In this document: positions 5,560 to 56,949 of the stretch, piece by piece | Numbering within the stretch: the stretch's first letter is position 1 | Layout of the letters: each line of letters starts with the position of its first letter | NCBI GenBank assembly: GCA_000165345.1 | Contig: CM000429.1 | Coordinates: 416,001-480,000, forward strand | Direction: 5' to 3' | DNA: 64,000 nucleotides | Notes under the pieces: model-generated | Database searches by the model: none | Seen by the model: only the letters and a program-made list of their open reading frames with translations | Told to the model about the DNA's origin: nothing | Translations under genes and position numbers: made by a program

Positions 5560-7041
5560 TTACTCCCAGATTTTTATAGTTCCATCCCAACCGCAAGAAG
5601 CAATGCGTGAAGGGAAAACAGGGTGCCACTGACAACCTATGCTTACCCCTTCATGGGCATTAAAACTTCTAAAATTTTTTGTAGTTTTCCAATCCCAAAA
5701 ATGAACCTTTCCATTAATATCACCAGATATTATATACTGTCCATCTGGGCTTACATCGCATTGAATTGCGTACCCTGAATTTTTAAGTCCAGTGAAGCGC
5801 TTTTTAATACATCTATAATTGGCATGCGTATCATAAACTAAAATTTTGTTATCCATACTTTGACAAACTAAATGCTGCCCATCAGAATGCAAAGCGACAT
5901 ATGGCATTGATTGCATTAATGGGTCAGCGATATGCTTCACTACAATTGGTATTCCAACATCCCAAACGAACATCTTTTTATCGTCTGAAGTTGTAACAAA
6001 CTTTTTGCCGTCTTCGCAAAATGTAACAGTATTTACCGCTCCCTGATGTTCATTGTACACTTGTACAACTTCATTAGATCTTGTGTCGTATTGAATAGCC
6101 TTTTTGTTGCTAAAGCCAACAATAATACTTTGCTCATTCTTTGGATGAACTGAAACACAGTACGGCGTCTTATCATTCAAAATTTTCCACTTCGTTTTTC
6201 CATATTCTGCATCCCAAAACAATATTTGTTTGTCATATCCACAACTATAGAAACTTTTACAGTCCCTTTGTTTATTTGAAAACTGAATATCTCTAACTGC
6301 GTTTTTGTGCCCATGGTAAATATAAATACACTTGCTATCAGAGCTCCAAATCTTTATTTGAGAATCCAACCCTGCAGATAATAATAGGTGCCCAGTTTTT
6401 GGAATGAATCTAATAGCTTGAACACCCAAAGAGTGAGCCCTTATAACTTTAATAAGTTTCTTAGGGGCATAACATTGTTCATTAGGAAGCCTTTCTTTGG
6501 TTTCATTTGGAGAGATAATCCAAGATCTATTTTGATAATCAGTACGTTCCTTGCCAAGGAATGTACTTTCGGCATACTTTTCGTCTGTCAACGAATCATC
6601 GGTATCTGATTCTTGAGTCTCATCATTAAATTCACTTTCCAAATTGTTAACTCCAAAATCTTCTTCAGTCCGAAATATGATATTCTCTGTAATGACTTTT
6701 TCTTTTTGATCTTTTCTCCACGGTCCAATGTAATTATACTTGCTCTTCTTCGATGAAGGCTTTAGTTTTTTTTCACCTATATGTTGGCTTAAATTCTCAA
6801 AATAAATTTCTTGTTTCTGACCAAATTTAGTTCTTTTATCTACTTTCTTTGAGCTTATATTTTTATTTTGAAAGTTAAAGTTTAAGTCGAATGCGGTTGA
6901 AGAGCAAGAAAAGGAATTTATTTGCTCATTTAGAGTTACTTTATTCAGATCATAATGATTAAATATAGCATCATCTACGTCTGGTGCAGAGCTTTTTTGT
7001 AAGAGTTGATTAATATTCGCTGAATCATCTTTTTCAAACAT
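5560..7041 (-). CDS. PRP17: Pre-mRNA splicing factor Prp17/CDC40, with a 7-blade WD40 C-terminus.
   Basis: The segment TGHLLLSAGLDSQIKIWSS...HGHKNAVRDIQFS...GYDKQILFWDAEYGK...PYCVSVHP...KKAIQYDTRSNEVVQVYNEHQGAVNTVTFCEDGKKFVTTSDDKKMFVWD...CQSMDNKILVYD...ISGDINGKVHFWDWKTTKNFRSFNAHEGVSIGCQWHP...CGWDGTIKIWE is near-colinear with CDC40. Confidence 0.9.
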   Translation of the reverse strand: MFEKDDSANINQLLQKSSAPDVDDAIFNHYDLNKVTLNEQINSFSCSSTAFDLNFNFQNKNISSKKVDKRTKFGQKQEIYFENLSQHIGEKKLKPSSKKSKYNYIGPWRKDQKEKVITENIIFRTEEDFGVNNLESEFNDETQESDTDDSLTDEKYAESTFLGKERTDYQNRSWIISPNETKERLPNEQCYAPKKLIKVIRAHSLGVQAIRFIPKTGHLLLSAGLDSQIKIWSSDSKCIYIYHGHKNAVRDIQFSNKQRDCKSFYSCGYDKQILFWDAEYGKTKWKILNDKTPYCVSVHPKNEQSIIVGFSNKKAIQYDTRSNEVVQVYNEHQGAVNTVTFCEDGKKFVTTSDDKKMFVWDVGIPIVVKHIADPLMQSMPYVALHSDGQHLVCQSMDNKILVYDTHANYRCIKKRFTGLKNSGYAIQCDVSPDGQYIISGDINGKVHFWDWKTTKNFRSFNAHEGVSIGCQWHPVFPSRIASCGWDGTIKIWE

Positions 7042-7086
7042 AACTATTTATGCTACAACTCAGCTGTCAGAACGTAATTTATAAAA

Positions 7087-7098
7087 AGCGCTAGCGCT
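7087..7098. promoter_or_regulatory. Perfect 12-bp GC-rich palindrome AGCGCTAGCGCT in the divergent promoter between Prp17 (minus) and the 7248 gene (plus).
   Basis: Its reverse complement is identical. The core CGCTAGCG/TAGCGC recurs at 45047..45056 and 20282..20290, with a variant at 15342..15349, all in 5' intergenic spacers. Confidence 0.4.
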
Positions 7099-7247
7099 AA
7101 TAACATGCCATATTCTAATTCCACACAATTAGAAGAATTTAATGGATACAAAAAAGATATAGTTGCCCTATATAATTAATACTATGTTATCTTTTCCTCA
7201 TATAAACTGCGAAAATTAGCATTTTGAAATCTTAATATTCTGAGAAA

Positions 7248-9269
7248 ATGGAAAATGAAAAAATGAAAGATCAAGAGAATGAATTCCAAGCTGAAGAAAA
7301 GGAGTCTCTAGATTCTAGTATTAGAAGCTTTGAGAACAAACCAATTTGTTCTGATGAATCTAGAGAGCTCCAAGATCATGAGAAAAATGATAATTGTTCT
7401 GGAGAAAGCTGCAAAGTAAATTCTAAACAAATTGCACAGAATGGCAATATTATTGATGAAAAAACTAATAGTTTTGATATAGACAGTCATAACTCTCAAA
7501 ATATAACTGATCTATATCTTGATCATAAGACAATTATTACGGAAAAATCTGAAAACAACAGTAATGCGGAAGTCGATCTTACAAATAACCAATCGTATTT
7601 TAAAGACTTAGATAATTCAATTGAAAAGGATGATGACAAAAGTCAAAAATCAGCTCAAAAATTAGAGAAAATTAGTCAAACTGAAGAGATGTTTTCTAAT
7701 AATAAAAATACAATAAAAATGGAATATAAAGTTAATCTAAAAGACAGGAAAGGAGAAATTAAAGAGCTATTGGACAACATCAACCAACTTAAAAGCAAAG
7801 CTAGCCAGAATGAAACTTGTATTGTGGCAAAGTTAATGAATTCTAGAGGGGTTTACTGTGGAATGCATACAGAATTATCTCTATATGAAGAATTACTGAA
7901 ATACTTGTTCTCAAAGCGTGACTTGAACGAGGAGACGTTCGAATCCATTGATATTGAAGATGATGCGTCATTAGTTGATCAGTTCGAAAGCAATACCAGT
8001 AATTTATTTCATCTGGGAATAGAGAATACAGAAACTAATACAAAAAGAAAATCAGTTTTCGAAAATATTATAGATTTTGCAGTAAAAAAAGTTTCTATTT
8101 ACAAAAATTATTCCAAAATATTTGAAAAGCCTAAACAAAATTTTGAAAATGAGCTTCTAAAACCATTGAGTGTGCATTACGATTTATCTAATCATGATAG
8201 CGTCACTTTTTTTGAAGATACAATGATTTGCGATGAAAATTTCAATAATTGTTTCGGCCCTTTTCATGTTAATGATGCATACATAAGCTTGTCCAGTAAT
8301 TATTTAAATCTTAAAATAAATCAGATAAAGAAGGAAATTGACATATTGTCAAGCTATTTAACTAAAAAAGAGTGCCAAATCTTTGAAAAAAGCATCGAGT
8401 TTAATTTTTCAATAAATTTTGGCATTAATGTCTTTAATTTATTCGAAAATAATTTATTCGGTTTAATTATTAATGAAAGATTTGATGAAAAAAATGAATT
8501 CAAATCAAAAACCAATTTAAAAGGCATAAATTCAAATAATATTCTTGCGTATAAACTGAATTTTTGTGGAATCAGATACCTAAAAGAAAATTTGATGAAT
8601 AATTTATTCAGAAAAAAATTGCAAGTTATTCAACATAGGTTGGATTCTCTATACAAATTTTTATTGCCTAGAGAAGAGTTCAGTCAAGAATTTAAAAACA
8701 AATCTATTGTTAATAGATTAATAAACGTAGAAAATATGCTACTATCTATAATCCCCAAATCTCATTCAGTTGCGGATATTTTTCAAACAAAGATACAGAT
8801 GGAGAGTAATTTACTTAATGGATTTATAATTAGTGACGTTCGGAAATCAGACTTAAAGAAGATATCAAATCTTGTAAAATCGAAAGTTTCATCTTACGGA
8901 GGAAGGAATTCAAAATTTGAAAGTGAAGGATGTGATATTGAAATGAACGATAATGAGTTATACAAAACAGAAGAAAATAAGAAAATTAAATCAATGTTGG
9001 AAGAGTTAGATGTGATAAGAAATAAAGAATCTTCCCTTTGTTTGGATGATATATTCAAAACTGCAAGCAGATTAGTGAGGAAAGAAAATACTATTGAGTC
9101 TTTTCTATCGAACGTTAAGAGAATTGAAAAATGTGAAAAAATGCATGCAGAAAATCTTGTTAGCTTAGAGAAAATTCAAGGTATTACAAACGAATTATTG
9201 GAAATTATGGAAACAAATTTAAATAAAGTCGATGAATTAAATATTGATAATATCAGTGGGAAATTATAG
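7248..9269 (+). CDS. Hypothetical 673-aa protein. The N-terminal third is acidic and low-complexity, and there are coiled-coil-like segments.
   Basis: Long uninterrupted ATG ORF on the coding strand of a compact locus. No recognisable domain. Antisense ORF 7308..7499 rejected. Confidence 0.7.
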   Translation: MENEKMKDQENEFQAEEKESLDSSIRSFENKPICSDESRELQDHEKNDNCSGESCKVNSKQIAQNGNIIDEKTNSFDIDSHNSQNITDLYLDHKTIITEKSENNSNAEVDLTNNQSYFKDLDNSIEKDDDKSQKSAQKLEKISQTEEMFSNNKNTIKMEYKVNLKDRKGEIKELLDNINQLKSKASQNETCIVAKLMNSRGVYCGMHTELSLYEELLKYLFSKRDLNEETFESIDIEDDASLVDQFESNTSNLFHLGIENTETNTKRKSVFENIIDFAVKKVSIYKNYSKIFEKPKQNFENELLKPLSVHYDLSNHDSVTFFEDTMICDENFNNCFGPFHVNDAYISLSSNYLNLKINQIKKEIDILSSYLTKKECQIFEKSIEFNFSINFGINVFNLFENNLFGLIINERFDEKNEFKSKTNLKGINSNNILAYKLNFCGIRYLKENLMNNLFRKKLQVIQHRLDSLYKFLLPREEFSQEFKNKSIVNRLINVENMLLSIIPKSHSVADIFQTKIQMESNLLNGFIISDVRKSDLKKISNLVKSKVSSYGGRNSKFESEGCDIEMNDNELYKTEENKKIKSMLEELDVIRNKESSLCLDDIFKTASRLVRKENTIESFLSNVKRIEKCEKMHAENLVSLEKIQGITNELLEIMETNLNKVDELNIDNISGKL

Positions 9270-9883: not shown

Positions 9884-11053
9884 TGTTAAAGTATAAATAG
9901 CTTGAAAGTATGCAAGTCATTCACTGCAGAATAATTTAAAACAAAATATTAATTATACCTTTAAATAAATGTTTAAATTGAAAACAAATATTTTGTGGGA
10001 GGGAAAGTTGCATGTACTTCAATTAGTTATGAAAATATTGTATTGCTTCATTATAAATTATTATAGAATCTGTTCATACCTATATTAATTATTATTTAAA
10101 AAATTCGAGTATATACTATTTTATTTTCTTATTAATAGCTTTATAGAATTTGTGCTGTAGTAGATATCTAAGCCATTAATTTTTGAACGCAACACTATTA
10201 TTAGCTAGAGAAGTTCTGAAGCCACTAGGATTGGTTCGCTTATCTACATTTCATTTACCCAAATTCTTAGTTTCTTTGATAGCTTTAATAGTGTTACTAG
10301 CTAAATTTTCAAAAACATCATATCATTCCAAACTAAAAATTTGTAGTTATAAAAATACTTTAAGCATTTTCGAGATCAAATATTCAAATAAAGAAATTTT
10401 TTCGCTAGGGAAAATCTTTTTAAGTTACTGAAAATTTAAATTCCAAAGGATAAAAGGTCATCATTTTATTAATTAATCAAAACATTTAATAAACAACTCA
10501 GCAAGACTAAATATTATTTAATACAAAATGATTTTGTATTATCTAGATACTTAATCAGAGATAATATTTGTATAATTGATCTTTATATGTATGGTGAGTA
10601 GATTTTAATAACTATTTCTCATTTGATATATATCTGGGTCTGAAATAAAATCAACTATCTTTTAACATCTTTTTATAAGAAACTCGATCCTAATCGTTTG
10701 CACGAAGTTTTGGAATACGATAGAATTAACTAAATGCACATTGAGAATGTAAATTTTAATGTGCTCGATACTACTAATAATTGGTTTTAAAAAGTATATT
10801 CGTATTGCAACTTTACTTCATGTGTTAATTTAAAAGATATTTTATTAACCTTTCCCAAGGTTGGATCAATTATCGGGCGGTTACAAATATGAGACTGTAG
10901 AATTGGCTAAACAAACAAAGGATCGGGATAGAAAATAAGGATCCATACGTACATACCAGTATTTTATAAATACTGCAAATATATTTAATGCGTTTTTTCA
11001 TTTAAAAGTTTTTGTCAATCTAGCTAAATTTCTATTTATTAGCCAAAGGAATA

Positions 11054-11805: not shown

Positions 11806-11814
11806 TTGGCGCCA
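11806..11814. promoter_or_regulatory. Palindromic E2F/DP-like motif TTGGCGCCA, about 195 bp upstream of the 12008 gene.
   Basis: Exact TTGGCGCCA lies in the intergenic spacer. TGGCGCCA-type palindromes are E2F/DP-class sites. Confidence 0.4.
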
Positions 11815-12007
11815 GTTACTGTGGGGGCAAATTAATACAATGTAATGCGAATATAAGTTAGAGCTGAAATTAACATAAGGAGATATTAATTAATTTAAAT
11901 AGAAAAACTAGATGATTATGGGATCATCATCTTGAGCAATTCTTACTGTTGATTATTATTAATATCGTTCCAGCCTTGCTGGGTTTATATTCAGAGAATA
12001 CTGAAAT

Positions 12008-15271: not shown

Positions 15272-15452
15272 AATTGTATTAATTCATTTTTTTTATATAA
15301 TTAAATGAATGAAACCTGAATTATTCATTAAAATCGACTCTGCGCCTAGATTGAGGTACAAAAGGACATTTTCTGCGAAAATACTCATTTTTTTTTATTA
15401 AATTAATAGAAAAAAAATTAGATTTCTTTTAATATTGTATTTCATTAAATTT

Positions 15453-19319: not shown

Positions 19320-19506
19320 CAGCACAGAAACATATATTATTTTATATTTATTATCTTTGATAGTAATGCATAAGTTGCAATTGTGGGGATTTAAATTGTT
19401 TGCAGGGGGTATGTTGCCGGTTGAAATAACAAAGAAAAAATGAAATTGTGAAAAACTTTTTAAAATTAAAAGTTAAAATAATAAATAAATATAAAAATAT
19501 ATTATA

Positions 19507-20240
19507 ATGTGCGAAACAACGTTCATTGGGAGAGCTAGCGATGGCCTAATTCTTACTGAGACTTGGGATGATTTAAGCTCCAACAGATCTCTGCAGAGTT
19601 ATAAGCACCAAGCTAAACAAATATTAAAAAGCATCGGGAATGATCAAGGAGTAGAAAAATGTTCTATTGATAGTGGAAATTATGTCTTCCACTACATTGT
19701 AAATGATGGTATTATTTATATGACTTTATCGGGAAAGTCATACCCGAAGAAGTTGGCTTTTTCTTTTCTAGATGAAATAAAAAGGTTATTTATTGAAGAA
19801 CTAGGGAGAGAATTTGCAAATAGAGATGAATTCAAGAGCCTGATTGATGCAATAGATAAGCCGTATTATTTCATAAAGTTTGACCGAATAATTCAACGAT
19901 GCAAATCCGAATATAAGGACCCAAACTCGAACAAGTCGCTACAAAAACTAAATGACTCGCTAATTGAGGTATGTTTACTACTTGTTTTTAACCATAATGC
20001 TCAAAAAAATTAACAATTCAGGTAACTAATATAATGAGAAGAAATGTGGATGATATTTTACTGAGAGGTGAAAATCTTAATGATGTTGAAAGAAAAGCCA
20101 ATGATTTAAAATTTGCATCCCTGGAATTTTCTAGAGCTGCAAAAAAGCTTTCATTGCATGCATTAATTCAAAAATATGCACCAATATTGGCCTTATCGGC
20201 TATAGTTTTGATCATCATTATATGGAAGCTTATTTTATAA
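19507..20240 (+). CDS. SEC22: R-SNARE Sec22 (longin domain, SNARE motif and TM anchor). It has 2 exons, 19507..19968 and 20022..20240, separated by a 53-nt intron.
   Basis: Exon 1 is the longin fold (MCETTFIGRASDGLILTETWDD...YKHQAKQILKSI...NYVFHYIVNDGIIYMTLSGKSYPKKLAFSFLDEI). It ends at GAG|GTATGT (19969). The acceptor is TTCAG (AG 20020-20021). Exon 2 reads VTNIMRRNVDDILLRGENLNDVERKANDLKFASLEFSRAAKKL followed by the TM helix YAPILALSAIVLIIIIW. The spliced frame is continuous. Confidence 0.75.
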
Positions 20241-20281: not shown

Positions 20282-20290
20282 TTAGCGCCA
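20282..20290. promoter_or_regulatory. TTAGCGCCA motif about 145 bp upstream of the UPRT ATG.
   Basis: It belongs to the same TAGCGCC family and also resembles the E2F-like TGGCGCCA. Confidence 0.3.
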
Positions 20291-22310: not shown

Positions 22311-22387
22311 AATTTCAGTAATTTGGTACAAACCATTTTTGAAAAAAGTTTATTGGCCATCTGAAAAATAATTAATGCAAATCAAGT

Positions 22388-22414
22388 GGCGGGAATTTTC
22401 AAATTTGTCCCCGC
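22388..22414. promoter_or_regulatory. E2F-like GGCGGGAA box with a partial inverted copy (TCCCCGC), about 90 bp upstream of the giant HECT ligase ATG.
   Basis: GTGGCGGGAATTTTCAAATTTGTCCCCGCAT spans the two boxes. GGCGGGAA is at 22388..22395 and TCCCCGC at 22408..22414, in a sequence that is otherwise about 30% GC. Confidence 0.4.
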
Positions 22415-36321: not shown

Positions 36322-36502
36322 GAGTAATATTGGTTACATAACTTACTTAAATATATTCAATTTTTTGAACAATTATTTAGCGCTACAATTTCTTTAATAT
36401 TTATTTTCAAATTGTATAACTGAATAATTGAGTTAATGAATTAATGGAAATAAACAAAGATTTGGAAGAGGAATAAGGAAATTGAAATCAAACTTAAATA
36501 TT

Positions 36503-39965: not shown

Positions 39966-40061
39966 TTTATAACGGTATGAAATAAATTTTAGTAATTTGC
40001 AAAACGCGCGGCCACATTTTTACCGCTCAAATAGTTCAAACAGTAATTTGAGATCAATATA

Positions 40062-40664: not shown

Positions 40665-41283
40665 AGTGTAAAAGCAATTTATATTATTATATCACTATAA
40701 TCGTATGATTATATTATTTACTATTTACTTTTGGTTATATATTTTTCAATGTTTTTTTGTTTCAAACCTTTAAATTCTGAAAATTATTTAGAAATAACTA
40801 GCGCCTTTTTAAATATTAAAAAAATCGCTTTTTAGCGAAAATAATAAATGCATTGGATTATTGACGGGCACTATATCCAATTTTCCAGTTAATTATAAAC
40901 ATTTTTAGATACAATATATAAACTTCATTTCTAAAATAGTTTAACTTGCTTTCATATCTTTTTTCAGTTACATAAATTAAGTCATAGTAAACTAAAAATT
41001 AAGGTTCTCAAATTCTAAGACTACCCGTCATACCGGCATAATTCTTGTTTCACTGGCGTTAGATGAGTCTCTATACTCGATTAGAAACTTGCATAGTTAG
41101 CAACAATTATACACAGGGATTGATTAGTGACTATAAATTTAAAATATATTTGTAAATGCTTGCCAAGAAAACTTGACAAATAAAATACCAAGCTGCACAG
41201 AATTGGACAAATATCGCATTCTATTTAGAAATTATTCAGAAAATATTCTGATTTAGATATTATATAGCTCCTATTAGTCTCAT

Positions 41284-41940
41284 TTATGCTAATCTATTAA
41301 ATCTTTCATTTGTATTCTCTCTAGAAAAAGAACCAGTAGAGTCTATTGAAATACCGGCTGCCTGAAGTTGATTTCTGCATCCAAACTGAACCATAATACA
41401 AATCACTCCTAAGAATGCCATGTAAGTTCCTGCAAATAATTCTAAAAAGTTTATTCTAAAGATAGACATAGCCAATATACCGGAAAGCAAATAGAGAGTA
41501 CCTTTCCCTGCAGGAACAGTCAAAAACTTTGCCCATTCCAAACAGAAATCTCTGAAAGGTTTCAATTTTTCAATATCTTTTGATTCAACTATCATTACTA
41601 CAATACCAAGCCCAAATAAGACGGCTTCAAACAAATAGCTTCCGGGTGATAAAAACAATTGACTAATACTAAAAATTCCAAGTAATGAGGCAAGAGAAAG
41701 GAAAATACCACCAACGAAACATAGCGCTCTCAATGGCTTGGGCCCTTCCCCTATTATGTGTGAATTTTGCAGATAGTCCCTTCCACTTCCTAATAATTGA
41801 TTACCACAGTTTTGAATCGTAGTTGCAGCCTGCCTTCCATAGTCATTAACCATTGTATATGCCTAAAAATCGAGTATTTATAATCAAAATAATTTAATTA
41901 AACTTACCATTTGGTTTGTAGTGTTCGATTGATTATCCAT
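41284..41940 (-). CDS. Hypothetical 4-TM small membrane protein of about 200 aa. It has 2 exons, 41908..41940 and 41284..41862, separated by a 45-nt intron.
   Basis: Upstream ATG at 41940 reads MDNQSNTTNQM, followed by a GTAAGT donor (41907). The acceptor is TTTTTAG (AG 41863-41864). Exon 2 is in frame: AYTMVNDYGRQAATT... Four hydrophobic helices are arranged in two hairpins. No family assigned. Confidence 0.5.
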
Positions 41941-42428
41941 TATTTAATTAATTAATTTACATAAATTTTTATATATAACTCTGGCTTCAACAGGTATTAC
42001 GTTGCAGATATTCGTGATCAAAAAAAAATCACGGAAAAATGGCTTACAGTATAATTATATTAATTACACACTAACAAATTTGTATCACAACAACCTAATA
42101 CATGTCAATTCAAATATTAATTATAATTCCCCCATTGTTGATCTAAATCCAAATAGCACGTATTGCCTCAAGCGGGTTCATTTGTGGTTGGCGGTAATTC
42201 ACTAATTCCTTTATTTTTCTTGTAAATTGAAATTATCAAGTTAATTATATGTAATTTTAGACTTGATATGATACTGTCGTTCAATGATCCTTAATTCTAG
42301 AGATTTATTCCCCATTTATATCTACTTCCTTATTGATACTATATTTTTTTCTAATTTTTATGTTTTTTTTTCCCAAAACATAGCAATTGATTTTCCCTCA
42401 TTTCTCAATGTAAAACTAAATCGTCATT

Positions 42429-43922: not shown

Positions 43923-44040
43923 GCTCTGCAAACTTTCATTCATTGCGCGACTAAGAATCAAAACTTCAAGTTAGATTTATAAAAACTAAACCGCTTTGCG
44001 GTAGCCAATTTAATAAATATTTAACTAGATAAATTAAATA

Positions 44041-45017: not shown

Positions 45018-45046
45018 CAGTAGAAAAAAAAAGCTAATTACCATAC

Positions 45047-45056
45047 CGCTAGCGCC
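45047..45056. promoter_or_regulatory. CGCTAGCGCC palindromic-core motif between the Thg1 3' end and the Utp14 5' end.
   Basis: ACCGCTAGCGCCTTAA shares the core with the 7087 palindrome. It lies about 180 bp upstream of the Utp14 ATG. Confidence 0.35.
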
Positions 45057-49283: not shown

Positions 49284-49672
49284 CTCTCACTGTTTAAAAA
49301 ATCATAAATATAATAAAAGATTATGTTCATACATATATCTTCCAAATAGCTTATATAAGTATAAATAAGTATTTACACTTATATTTTTTCTTTTGCAAAT
49401 TGTTGAATGCTTTGCAAAATATACAGTTTACATTTTCAATTGCTTGTGGGGAAACAAAATTCCTATCTAATTTTTGAATGCAATCCCGCTTATATAACGT
49501 TAATTTTTTTTTAAAGTCAAAATCAATAATAATTAATGAGTAATTTTTAAGCAATGAATATTCTTGAGCTATTAAATTGTCGTTTTAATCTTAGAAGTTG
49601 TTCCTTTAACATTTATTATTTAGTTTACTTGCTGAAATCTAAGGATTAGTAAGTTTGAATGGTTCCAATTCT

Positions 49673-50293
49673 TTACTTGCTATTTTTAGCTACTGAGTAG
49701 TATATTACATATGCGCTAATGACTGAAAGCGTAGTTGCAACCATCAAAAAAGTAATTGTAAATGTAGTTGCCATTGAATAATCTTCTTCAATCTTTTTTA
49801 ATTTAAACTCTTGCATTGAGCTTACGTTTTGTACAGTTGGAGAATTCCTCAACAATATATTCGATGCAATGTGAGCTTCTCCTCCCAGCTTATCTTCTCG
49901 GCATTGCATTAAAAATTGGAGAATATTTCCTCGATTTACAATTCTATTTGTCCTATCATTTTTTGGGAATTCGAACAGTATTCCAGTAAGTCCTGTTAAA
50001 TGCTCATATTCAAGTATTCGAATGAAAATTGGTGGCTGCGGTGGAGGGATTCCTCTATTAATACATAAAGTTAGTATTTCTCTAAAGAGCTTTTGATCTG
50101 TAACATCTTCAAAAAGAGGTGCCCATAAGGATATTTTTAGCCTAACAAATATCCCAATAGTCCAAGAATTTGTTATGAACGGAGAATTCTCAAACGAAGG
50201 ATAAAGATGTATTTGGTTTGGCCCAATTAACGAACTTAAATTCAACACAATCTTTGATAATATTAACGCAATAAATAACTTTATCATTTTCAT
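49673..50293 (-). CDS. Hypothetical 206-aa protein with an N-terminal hydrophobic signal-like segment and a C-terminal TM anchor. No family assigned.
   Basis: The N-terminus is MKMIKLFIALILSKIVLNLSS. A PPPQPP motif lies mid-protein. The C-terminus is MATTFTITFLMVATTLSVISAYVIYYSV. Confidence 0.4.
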   Translation of the reverse strand: MKMIKLFIALILSKIVLNLSSLIGPNQIHLYPSFENSPFITNSWTIGIFVRLKISLWAPLFEDVTDQKLFREILTLCINRGIPPPQPPIFIRILEYEHLTGLTGILFEFPKNDRTNRIVNRGNILQFLMQCREDKLGGEAHIASNILLRNSPTVQNVSSMQEFKLKKIEEDYSMATTFTITFLMVATTLSVISAYVIYYSVAKNSK

Positions 50294-50574
50294 CAGGAAA
50301 GATAGTCATAGCTAACTTCATTCCTAATAATAATAATAAATATTCTATATTTCTAATCATTAATTTTTCTTAGTTTCTAACTATGTTCGAAAACGCGTAT
50401 AACGAATCTTGAGATTATAACAAAAAAATTCGGTTTTTTTTTTAAATGAAATTTGTTATAAAATTACCTAATTCCAAAACTAGAACAAAACCAACCAAAG
50501 AAGTATTCGTGATATTTTAAAATGATTAAATAACAATCTAACCAATTAATTTTTTTTTAATAAAGAATATATGA

Positions 50575-52131: not shown

Positions 52132-52379
52132 ATTTTTTAAAATAATTCTACGAAATAATTACATTTGGTCAAAATTAATGGGACTGCGTTTAATAAGCTA
52201 ATACCTATTATTTTAGATGCGGCCAAAATAGAGCCAAAAATTTAGCGCAAAAAATATACAAGCAGATAGGTTAAAAAATTTATGGAAGTGCCCACAATAT
52301 CCAAGGTTGTAAATCAGTAATAATAAATTCACTTGCAACCAAATAGTTCTTAAGATATTTGCCCATATGAAATACAAAG

Positions 52380-54037: not shown

Positions 54038-54044
54038 TTGGCGC
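54038..54044. promoter_or_regulatory. E2F-like half site TTGGCGC in the pyruvate kinase upstream region.
   Basis: AAATTGGCGCTTCA lies about 80 bp upstream of the PK ATG (53960, minus strand). Confidence 0.3.
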
Positions 54045-54068
54045 TTCATATCTTATCTATGTTATTTA

Positions 54069-54084
54069 CTCCCCTTGTGGGGAG
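54069..54084. promoter_or_regulatory. Inverted repeat CTCCCC-ttgt-GGGGAG (6-bp arms, 4-nt loop) between pyruvate kinase and the WD-repeat gene.
   Basis: The arms are perfect complements. It lies in the PK 5' region / WD-gene 3' flank. It could be a hairpin terminator or processing signal, or a protein-binding palindrome. Confidence 0.3.
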
Positions 54085-56387: not shown

Positions 56388-56949
56388 ATTTTTCTGTTTT
56401 CACATTACAGTAAATAGCTTCATCATTTCCAAAAATTATTAGATTTCATCGTTCCCTCCTCGTTATTTTGAAAAAAAATATACGCGATTGATTATTAATT
56501 GCATGAAAAAAGTTATATAAATTCCTAAAGAATTTTTGTTGCTATTTTTAAATGTGATTTAATAAACATAGTATGAAAACAATCTATTCTGCTGCAAAAT
56601 ATATTTTAAGATTTATGATAATTCGGAATACTACAAAACATTAGATGCTACTGTATACAAGATCAGACATCATTCAAAAATAGTGCTCTGCAGTATAATT
56701 AATTTAACTTAAATAAAATAATCGTGAGCGCAGAAATAATTGCAAATTATGTGGAATTGCGCTGCAAAATTTATCAAACAAATAATTGGAGTTAATTTAG
56801 TAAAGGTTTTTCAACATTAAATATAATATTTTAAAGTCATGTATTAAAATTTTGATTTTGAATATGTATTAATATATTATTTGCCCAATATAATTGAATT
56901 ACTCTAAAGATTTGGAAGACTGATAATTTTGTTTTAAACTTAATATACG

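Follow-up and report, generated by a model that had tools for sequence, protein, structure and literature searches.

GCGC Elements in the 5' Spacers of a Cryptosporidium parvum Genomic Window and Their Probable Place in the E2F-Like Motif Family

What kind of site is the GC-rich palindrome located in the divergent promoter of the Prp17 gene of C. parvum, and does it represent a motif of its own? The initial annotation of a 64,000-nucleotide stretch of DNA (contig CM000429.1, positions 416,001 to 480,000; hereafter the window, to which all coordinates refer) regarded this palindrome and several relatives as a recurrent palindromic TAGCGC-core motif. Proteins encoded in the window are exact matches to those of C. 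parvum Iowa II, and the stretch belongs to chromosome 1 of that species. The promoters of this parasite have a motif literature of their own. Among the upstream motifs of C. parvum, the E2F-like motif 3 (DTTGSCGCCH; core [C/G]GCGC[G/C]) shows the strongest over-representation (Oberstaller 2013, PMC3734150), and a review gives the consensus [A/T][C/G]GCGC[G/C][A/T], which it ascribes to two E2F and two DP proteins (PMC12246861). The motif is also attributed to Bankier 2003, as credited in that review (PMC12246861). The cores 'CGCCAA' and 'GGCG' are among the elements reported 5' of replication and glycolysis genes (Mullapudi 2007, PMC1779779). E2F motifs are dominant in sporozoite ATAC-seq peaks of C. 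parvum, more than half of which were annotated as bidirectional promoters (bioRxiv 10.1101/2025.01.17.633476). The motif family is thus already known for this genome (PMC3734150; PMC12246861; bioRxiv 10.1101/2025.01.17.633476). Here, the distribution, the cross-species conservation and the flanks of the GCGC sites in the window are described, and the readings of the palindrome are weighed.

The double GCGC core of the Prp17 promoter

The sequence AGCGCTAGCGCT at 7087-7098 is a perfect palindrome with zero mismatches and lies, as originally described, in the 206-bp divergent spacer between the Prp17 ORF (5560-7041, minus strand) and an ORF on the plus strand (7248-9269). It can be read as a tandem double GCGC core (AGCGCT-AGCGCT), 46-57 nt 5' of the Prp17 ATG and 150-161 nt 5' of the 7248 ATG, with the cores starting at 7088 and 7094; its minus strand is ATTAGCGC. 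Across an alignment of seven species that extends from C. parvum to C. felis, the two GCGC cores do not change, nor does the next T. TA, CA or TT is found at the centre, and the first 5' flanking base is A (three species) or G (four). Because centre and 5' flank vary without compensating changes, selection on the whole 12-bp palindrome was ruled out; judged from the alignments, the selected unit is two GCGC cores 6 bp apart, and the palindrome would be incidental. The orthologous Prp17 promoter of C. andersoni, the most distant species sampled, carries a single canonical TAGGCGCCAAT (GGCGCC) followed by CCACACA.

The double core is adjoined on its 3' side by two conserved boxes. The CATGC box at 7104-7108, half of the AP2_1/TGCATGCA-type motif, is an invariant block in the alignment of the Prp17/7248 spacer; the TCCACAC box at 7120-7126, of the CACACA type of ApiAP2 motif, is invariant in seven species and has its counterpart in the C. 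andersoni CCACACA. With the double GCGC core, CATGC and CCACACA, this 206-bp bidirectional promoter is a clean and deeply conserved test case. Two further observations concern the same spacer. In C. parvum, CCACAC is framed (window 7104-7134) by a perfect 8-bp inverted repeat, TTCTAATT ... AATTAGAA, which is absent from the other species. About 60 nt 5' of the 7248 start codon, at 7176-7190, there is a conserved ATAATATTATG-type block (TTAATACTATGTTAT in C. parvum); the ATG inside it opens an 11-codon upstream ORF in C. parvum, and the block may be a start-site or uORF element.

Since the main apicomplexan transcription factors are ApiAP2 proteins and AP2-type boxes adjoin the palindrome, the palindrome could itself be an ApiAP2 site, with GCTAGC or a TAGC-type string at its centre as the recognized sequence. 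This reading is highly improbable. The central TAG is the least conserved part, being TA/CA/TT at Prp17 and TA/CA/CG at the related Utp14 site described below. In the text of the paper on C. parvum AP2 binding arrays (PMC4117751), the strings TAGC, GCTA and GCGC do not occur, and the E2F-like motif is listed there among known transcription-factor motifs, apart from the ApiAP2 sites; AP2 motifs were not found in sporozoite open chromatin (bioRxiv 10.1101/2025.01.17.633476). The specific candidate, an AP2 site at the GCTAGC centre, was rejected on the poorly conserved centre and the absence of the string from the text of PMC4117751. Published AP2 cores (TGCATGCA, G-box, CACACA) are not matched by the palindrome either. 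The initial annotation had named AP2 and E2F specificities as the comparisons to make: the conserved bases are GCGC and contain no AP2 core, the AP2-type boxes being separate at 7104 and 7120, and the best match was the E2F-like motif.

Distribution and conservation of GCGC sites

The gene map of the window was built from ORFs and from the gene calls of orthologous loci; its annotated part comprises 8.3 kb of intergenic DNA (14%) and 52.5 kb of genes. The recurrence claimed for the motif exceeds chance for the 12-mer AGCGCTAGCGCT with at most two mismatches (3 copies in the window vs 0.20 expected; 0 of 100 shuffles reached 3), although for TAGCGC alone it is marginal window-wide (11 vs 5.4 expected; 4 of 100 shuffles reached 11). 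Of the three 12-mer copies, the one at 19531 is within a coding sequence and probably due to chance. The placement of TAGCGC is not chance: six of its eight separate loci are intergenic, where only 14% of the annotated sequence is intergenic (binomial 1.4e-4). The remaining two, at 41722 and 49713, are inside coding sequence, so that TAGCGC is not intergenic throughout.

Of the core itself, GCGC, 14 copies are intergenic and 19 are in genes, which makes its intergenic density 4.6-fold higher (Fisher 5e-5) despite a lower G+C content of spacers (24.6%) than of genes (30.8%); its observed/expected ratio under a first-order Markov model is 2.97 in spacers vs 0.80 in genes. TRGCGC, counted on both strands, is found at 13 intergenic positions vs 4 in genes, a 20-fold difference in density (Fisher 8e-9). 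The top enriched intergenic 4-mers are CCGC/GCGG, GCGC and CGCG. Each of the six intestinal species sampled likewise shows intergenic GCGC enrichment (C. meleagridis, C. sp. chipmunk genotype I, C. ubiquitum, C. canis, C. felis, and the species of SRR31860986); the single locus of C. andersoni has 1 intergenic GCGC vs 4 in genes, with CCGC/GCGG cores enriched instead. Convergent (3'-3') spacers contain 0 GCGC sites vs about 0.8 expected, a comparison of 5' and 3' spacers that has no power in the window because only 474 bp are convergent.

The intergenic cores sit 40-220 nt from a start codon, nearly all of them in spacers that include a 5' end. All three relatives of the palindrome named in the initial annotation are present, and the extent of one was revised. 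The element 5' of Utp14 is a two-part CCGC-N2-GCGC site, ACCGCTAGCGCC, at 45045-45056, of which the formerly given 45047-45056 are only the last 10 bases. It lies 180-190 nt 5' of the Utp14 ATG and 28 nt past the Thg1 stop codon, so that its position does not prove 5'-specificity; with short tandem spacers and 474 bp of 3'-3' spacer in the window, 5' and 3' roles are not separable for such sites. Across species it reads CCGC-YR-GCGC[CT], with CCGC and GCGC invariant in 6/6 species and TA, CA or CG at the centre. The second relative, TTAGCGCCA at 20282-20290, 144-152 nt 5' of the UPRT ATG, has GCGCCA invariant in six species and takes the form TTGGCGCCA in C. canis. The third, TGCGCCTAG at 15341-15349 (including GCGCCTAG at 15342-15349), is located in the G-patch/eIF2B divergent promoter, with TGCGC invariant in 7/7 species. 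As palindromes these relatives did not hold up: the site at 7087 is the only true palindrome, and the others have just the RGCGC(C) core in common.

Equally good GCGC sites that had been passed over start at 11806, 36377, 40798, 52241, 54038 and 56727, with another at 56748-56764. A canonical TTGGCGCCA at 11806-11814, 5' of CAF1A, is followed by the G-box TGTGGGGG; T[GA]GCGCC is kept in six species, A replacing G in chipmunk genotype I and SRR31860986. Upstream of CAF1C/RbAp48, TTAGCGCTAC (36377-36386) retains TTAGCGC from C. parvum to C. canis. Two sites kept over the same range of species lie 5' of minus-strand genes: CTAGCGCCT (40798-40806; AGCGCC kept), about 135 nt from the RNA polymerase Rbc25 gene, and TTGGCGCT (54038-54045; TGGCGCT kept), about 80 nt from pyruvate kinase. 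About 115 nt 5' of a TauE-family gene, also on the minus strand, TTTAGCGCAAAA (52241-52252) is identical in four species; C. canis and C. felis have lost it. The Arf/56950 divergent promoter (56727-56764) holds two GCGC elements, AGCGCAG and TATGTGGAATTGCGCTG, and both blocks are invariant in 6/6 species. As a side observation, 40798-40806 reads AACTAGCGCC, in which a published unknown motif, [A/C]AACTA, abuts the GCGCC core; a differently named one, 'unknown motif 14', is reported as frequent in E2F-containing clusters (PMC3734150).

The comparison between species drew on 12 orthologous loci (L001-L012), each about 22 kb long. With those around CAF1A (L001-L006) and Utp14 (L007-L011), 28 spacers were aligned with four to six other Cryptosporidium species; the species comparisons are non-independent samples. 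At baseline, 15.8% of intergenic columns are invariant, as are 2.5% of intergenic 4-mers in all species and 5.4% without C. felis. Invariant intergenic GCGC cores number 6/14 in all species and 11/14 (79%) from C. parvum to C. canis, vs 18-39% for other GC-rich 4-mers (Fisher 2.5e-6). These results show a sequence-precise, selectively maintained DNA element in promoters, and they support the view that the GCGC element acts as a functional cis-element in 5' spacers.

A less specific explanation would be that GC-richness as such serves as a core-promoter or chromatin signal (nucleosome exclusion, start-site positioning) and requires no particular factor, or that the site is an RNA element in a UTR. 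By manual tally, conserved CGC-core elements occur in about 20 of the 23 5'-containing spacers irrespective of gene function, and the Utp14 site is directly 3' of a stop codon, as such a signal would allow. This explanation is nevertheless very unlikely, as the conservation of GCGC is base-precise (the 79% given above) and the sites occur in either orientation relative to the gene. The RNA structure reading was rejected: the fold of 7060-7135 is no better than that of shuffled sequences (z = 0.15), no Rfam families or tRNAs were found in the window, and the palindrome is broken across species without compensation.

Assignment to the E2F-like family

The relation of the A-flanked sites to the published motif is revealed by their flanks. 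A and G are swapped before GCGC at the orthologous sites 7088, 11809, 20285 and 45052. When the flanks of 12 sites in all species are pooled, T is found at -3, T at -2 and R at -1, which gives the half-site TTRGCGC; the counts at -1 are A 68, G 45, T 25 and C 2. In this window, A precedes GCGC in 9 half-sites vs G in 4. The TAGCGC sites are placed in the E2F-like family because of the A/G swaps at orthologous sites, the TTRGCGC flanks and the GGCGCC of C. andersoni. The TAGCGC motif of the initial annotation accordingly gives way to an A-flanked form of the published E2F-like TTGGCGCC.

The likeness to the C. parvum E2F-like motif includes the same genome, the GCGC core, the T-rich 5' flank (TTRGCGC) and intergenic over-representation, with strong enrichment 5' of genes and in bidirectional promoters. 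The window also holds canonical copies, TTGGCGCCA at 11806 and TTGGCGCT at 54038, and sister species carry canonical GGCGC at orthologous positions. Two differences stand against these likenesses. Both cores of the palindrome are flanked by A/T, whereas the published flanks are G/C, and a strict [C/G]GCGC[G/C] scan would therefore miss the palindrome in C. parvum. The G/C flank is absent from the C. parvum AGCGCT, present on one side (GGCGC) in 4/7 species and on both sides in C. andersoni; the sites at 20282, 40798, 45045 and 15341 have it on one side. The second difference is that the cores are in tandem, 6 bp apart, an arrangement not found in the literature cited here. By sequence comparison, the palindrome is a doubled, slightly degenerate copy of the known E2F-like GCGC motif (DTTGSCGCCH/TGGCGCCA) and, for this reason, would not be a new kind of site. 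Our main reading, to which we assign a probability of roughly 0.75, is that the palindrome is a homotypic pair of E2F-like elements with the half-site TTRGCGC, the other sites being single copies, and that both are bound by a putative E2F/DP factor.

To our knowledge, Cryptosporidium is the sole apicomplexan genus that has retained E2F/DP. Against the main reading, AGCGCT departs from the G/C flanks of the consensus, and A before GCGC is disfavoured by animal E2Fs. For the canonical E2F/DP site, TTTSGCGCSAAA, the E2F4-DP2 structure revealed symmetric recognition of a CGCGCG/GGCGCC core (Zheng et al., 1999, as cited in PMC3734150). The sites described here resemble it in the symmetric CGCG/GCGC core, which in E2F/DP is read by a winged-helix heterodimer, in the T-tract 5' of the core, and in their location 5' of proliferation genes, in this case CAF1A, CAF1C/RbAp48, Utp14, Prp17 and UPRT. 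They differ from it in a flank that tolerates A and is almost never C, and in being present in most promoters, the canonical site being confined to a cell-cycle subset. Rb-type partners are largely absent from Cryptosporidium (PMC3734150).

The main competitor of the E2F-like reading takes GCGC-N2-GCGC (and CCGC-N2-GCGC) as a separate composite element of fixed spacing, read by another dimeric factor similar to NRF1/EWG. The NRF1/EWG palindrome, GCGCATGCGC, likewise has two GCGC half-sites with 2 bp between them. The N2 spacing is exact in 7/7 species at Prp17 and in 6/6 at Utp14, both cores being invariant at each; this is weak evidence for a composite element, since 2 nt between the cores leave little room for indels. 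At the loci of the intestinal species, CGC-N2-GCG is intergenic only at the Prp17 and Utp14 positions and at one C. felis position (L011, 6995; CGCGCGCG), and the remaining two copies are inside genes of C. sp. chipmunk genotype I. Such a factor is nonetheless quite unlikely. The NRF1 half-sites are TGCGC vs AGCGC/GGCGC here, and the centre is variable, NRF1 having AT, AC or GT; the flank is GGCGC, the E2F form, in 4/7 species, and in C. andersoni one canonical GGCGCC replaces the pair. No NRF1-type factor is reported for Cryptosporidium in the literature cited here. Taken more broadly, as a distinct composite element of the intestinal Cryptosporidium clade, the tandem (S/G)CGC-N2-GCGC, kept at exact spacing in two unrelated promoters from C. 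parvum to C. felis, is a somewhat less doubtful proposal, though still an unlikely one. If it were true, the element might be read by two E2F/DP dimers binding cooperatively on opposite helix faces or by a non-E2F dimer, and TTAGCGC, the A-flanked class, would then carry a distinct regulatory meaning instead of being simply a weak E2F site.

Under the E2F-like reading, by analogy with the symmetric recognition described above for E2F4-DP2, each GCGC core at these compact promoters would be bound by a putative E2F/DP winged-helix heterodimer. Binding would open the chromatin and so activate either or both of the neighboring genes. Judging from the C. andersoni promoter, two weak A/T-flanked cores could together do the job of one strong GGCGCC. 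A point against this reading is that two heterodimers only 6 bp apart might clash. Of the dimeric transcription-factor site proposed initially, what survives is a conserved cis-element of 5' spacers that is most plausibly read by a dimeric DNA-binding factor; the palindrome as its selected unit does not.

The E2F-like motif appears to be the main promoter signal of Cryptosporidium. The sole additions made here to the described family are the A-flanked variant, in which A is accepted and, in this window, preferred before GCGC, and the tandem double core conserved at two promoters across the intestinal clade. Since A is accepted before GCGC (TTRGCGC), the comparison suggests that the published consensus is too narrow. 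Motif scans and the design of reporters can profit from the TTRGCGC refinement, which is not a new discovery.

Other conserved elements and gene calls

CCGC/GCGG cores similar to motif 4 are conserved likewise, namely TGGCGGGAA at 22387, TTGGCGGTAA at 42188, TTTACCGC at 40019 and TCCCGCTT at 49484. The first of these is a canonical E2F motif-4 copy (22386-22394), about 90 nt 5' of the gene for a 4612-aa HECT/SPRY protein, with GGCGG kept in 6/7 species. A different palindrome, ACCGCTTTGCGGT (CCGC-N3-GCGG), is located at 43990-44002, about 40 nt 5' of the conserved Thg1 ATG (44041), and has been retained by C. meleagridis, C. ubiquitum (CCGCTCAGCGG) and C. canis. In 50383-50398, 5' of the gene at 49673-50293, ATGTTCG-AAACGCG(T) is invariant in 6/6 species, and the ACGCGT within it is similar to the MluI cell-cycle box of fungi.

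G-box elements (GTGGGGA/TTGTGGGGAAAC) are present at 11819-11826, 19383-19390, 49444-49455 and 54077-54083; they are invariant across species and often share promoters with GCGC cores. The CAF1A promoter of C. andersoni contains CCCGCC-type cores and a G-box. Two unusually long spacers each contain a long invariant block with no Rfam hit: AGGATCC..ACGTACATACCA at 10938-10958 in a spacer of 1170 bp, and TGATCTAAATCC..ACGTATTGCCTC at 42139-42169 in one of 575 bp. These blocks could be unannotated exons or non-coding RNA genes.

Public gene calls fuse neighboring genes at two places, Longin with UPRT in C. felis (L005, 17579-19182), and WD40 with Arf in chipmunk genotype I (L008, 18979-21156) and C. 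ubiquitum (L009, 19003-21204); these fused calls are probably annotation errors.
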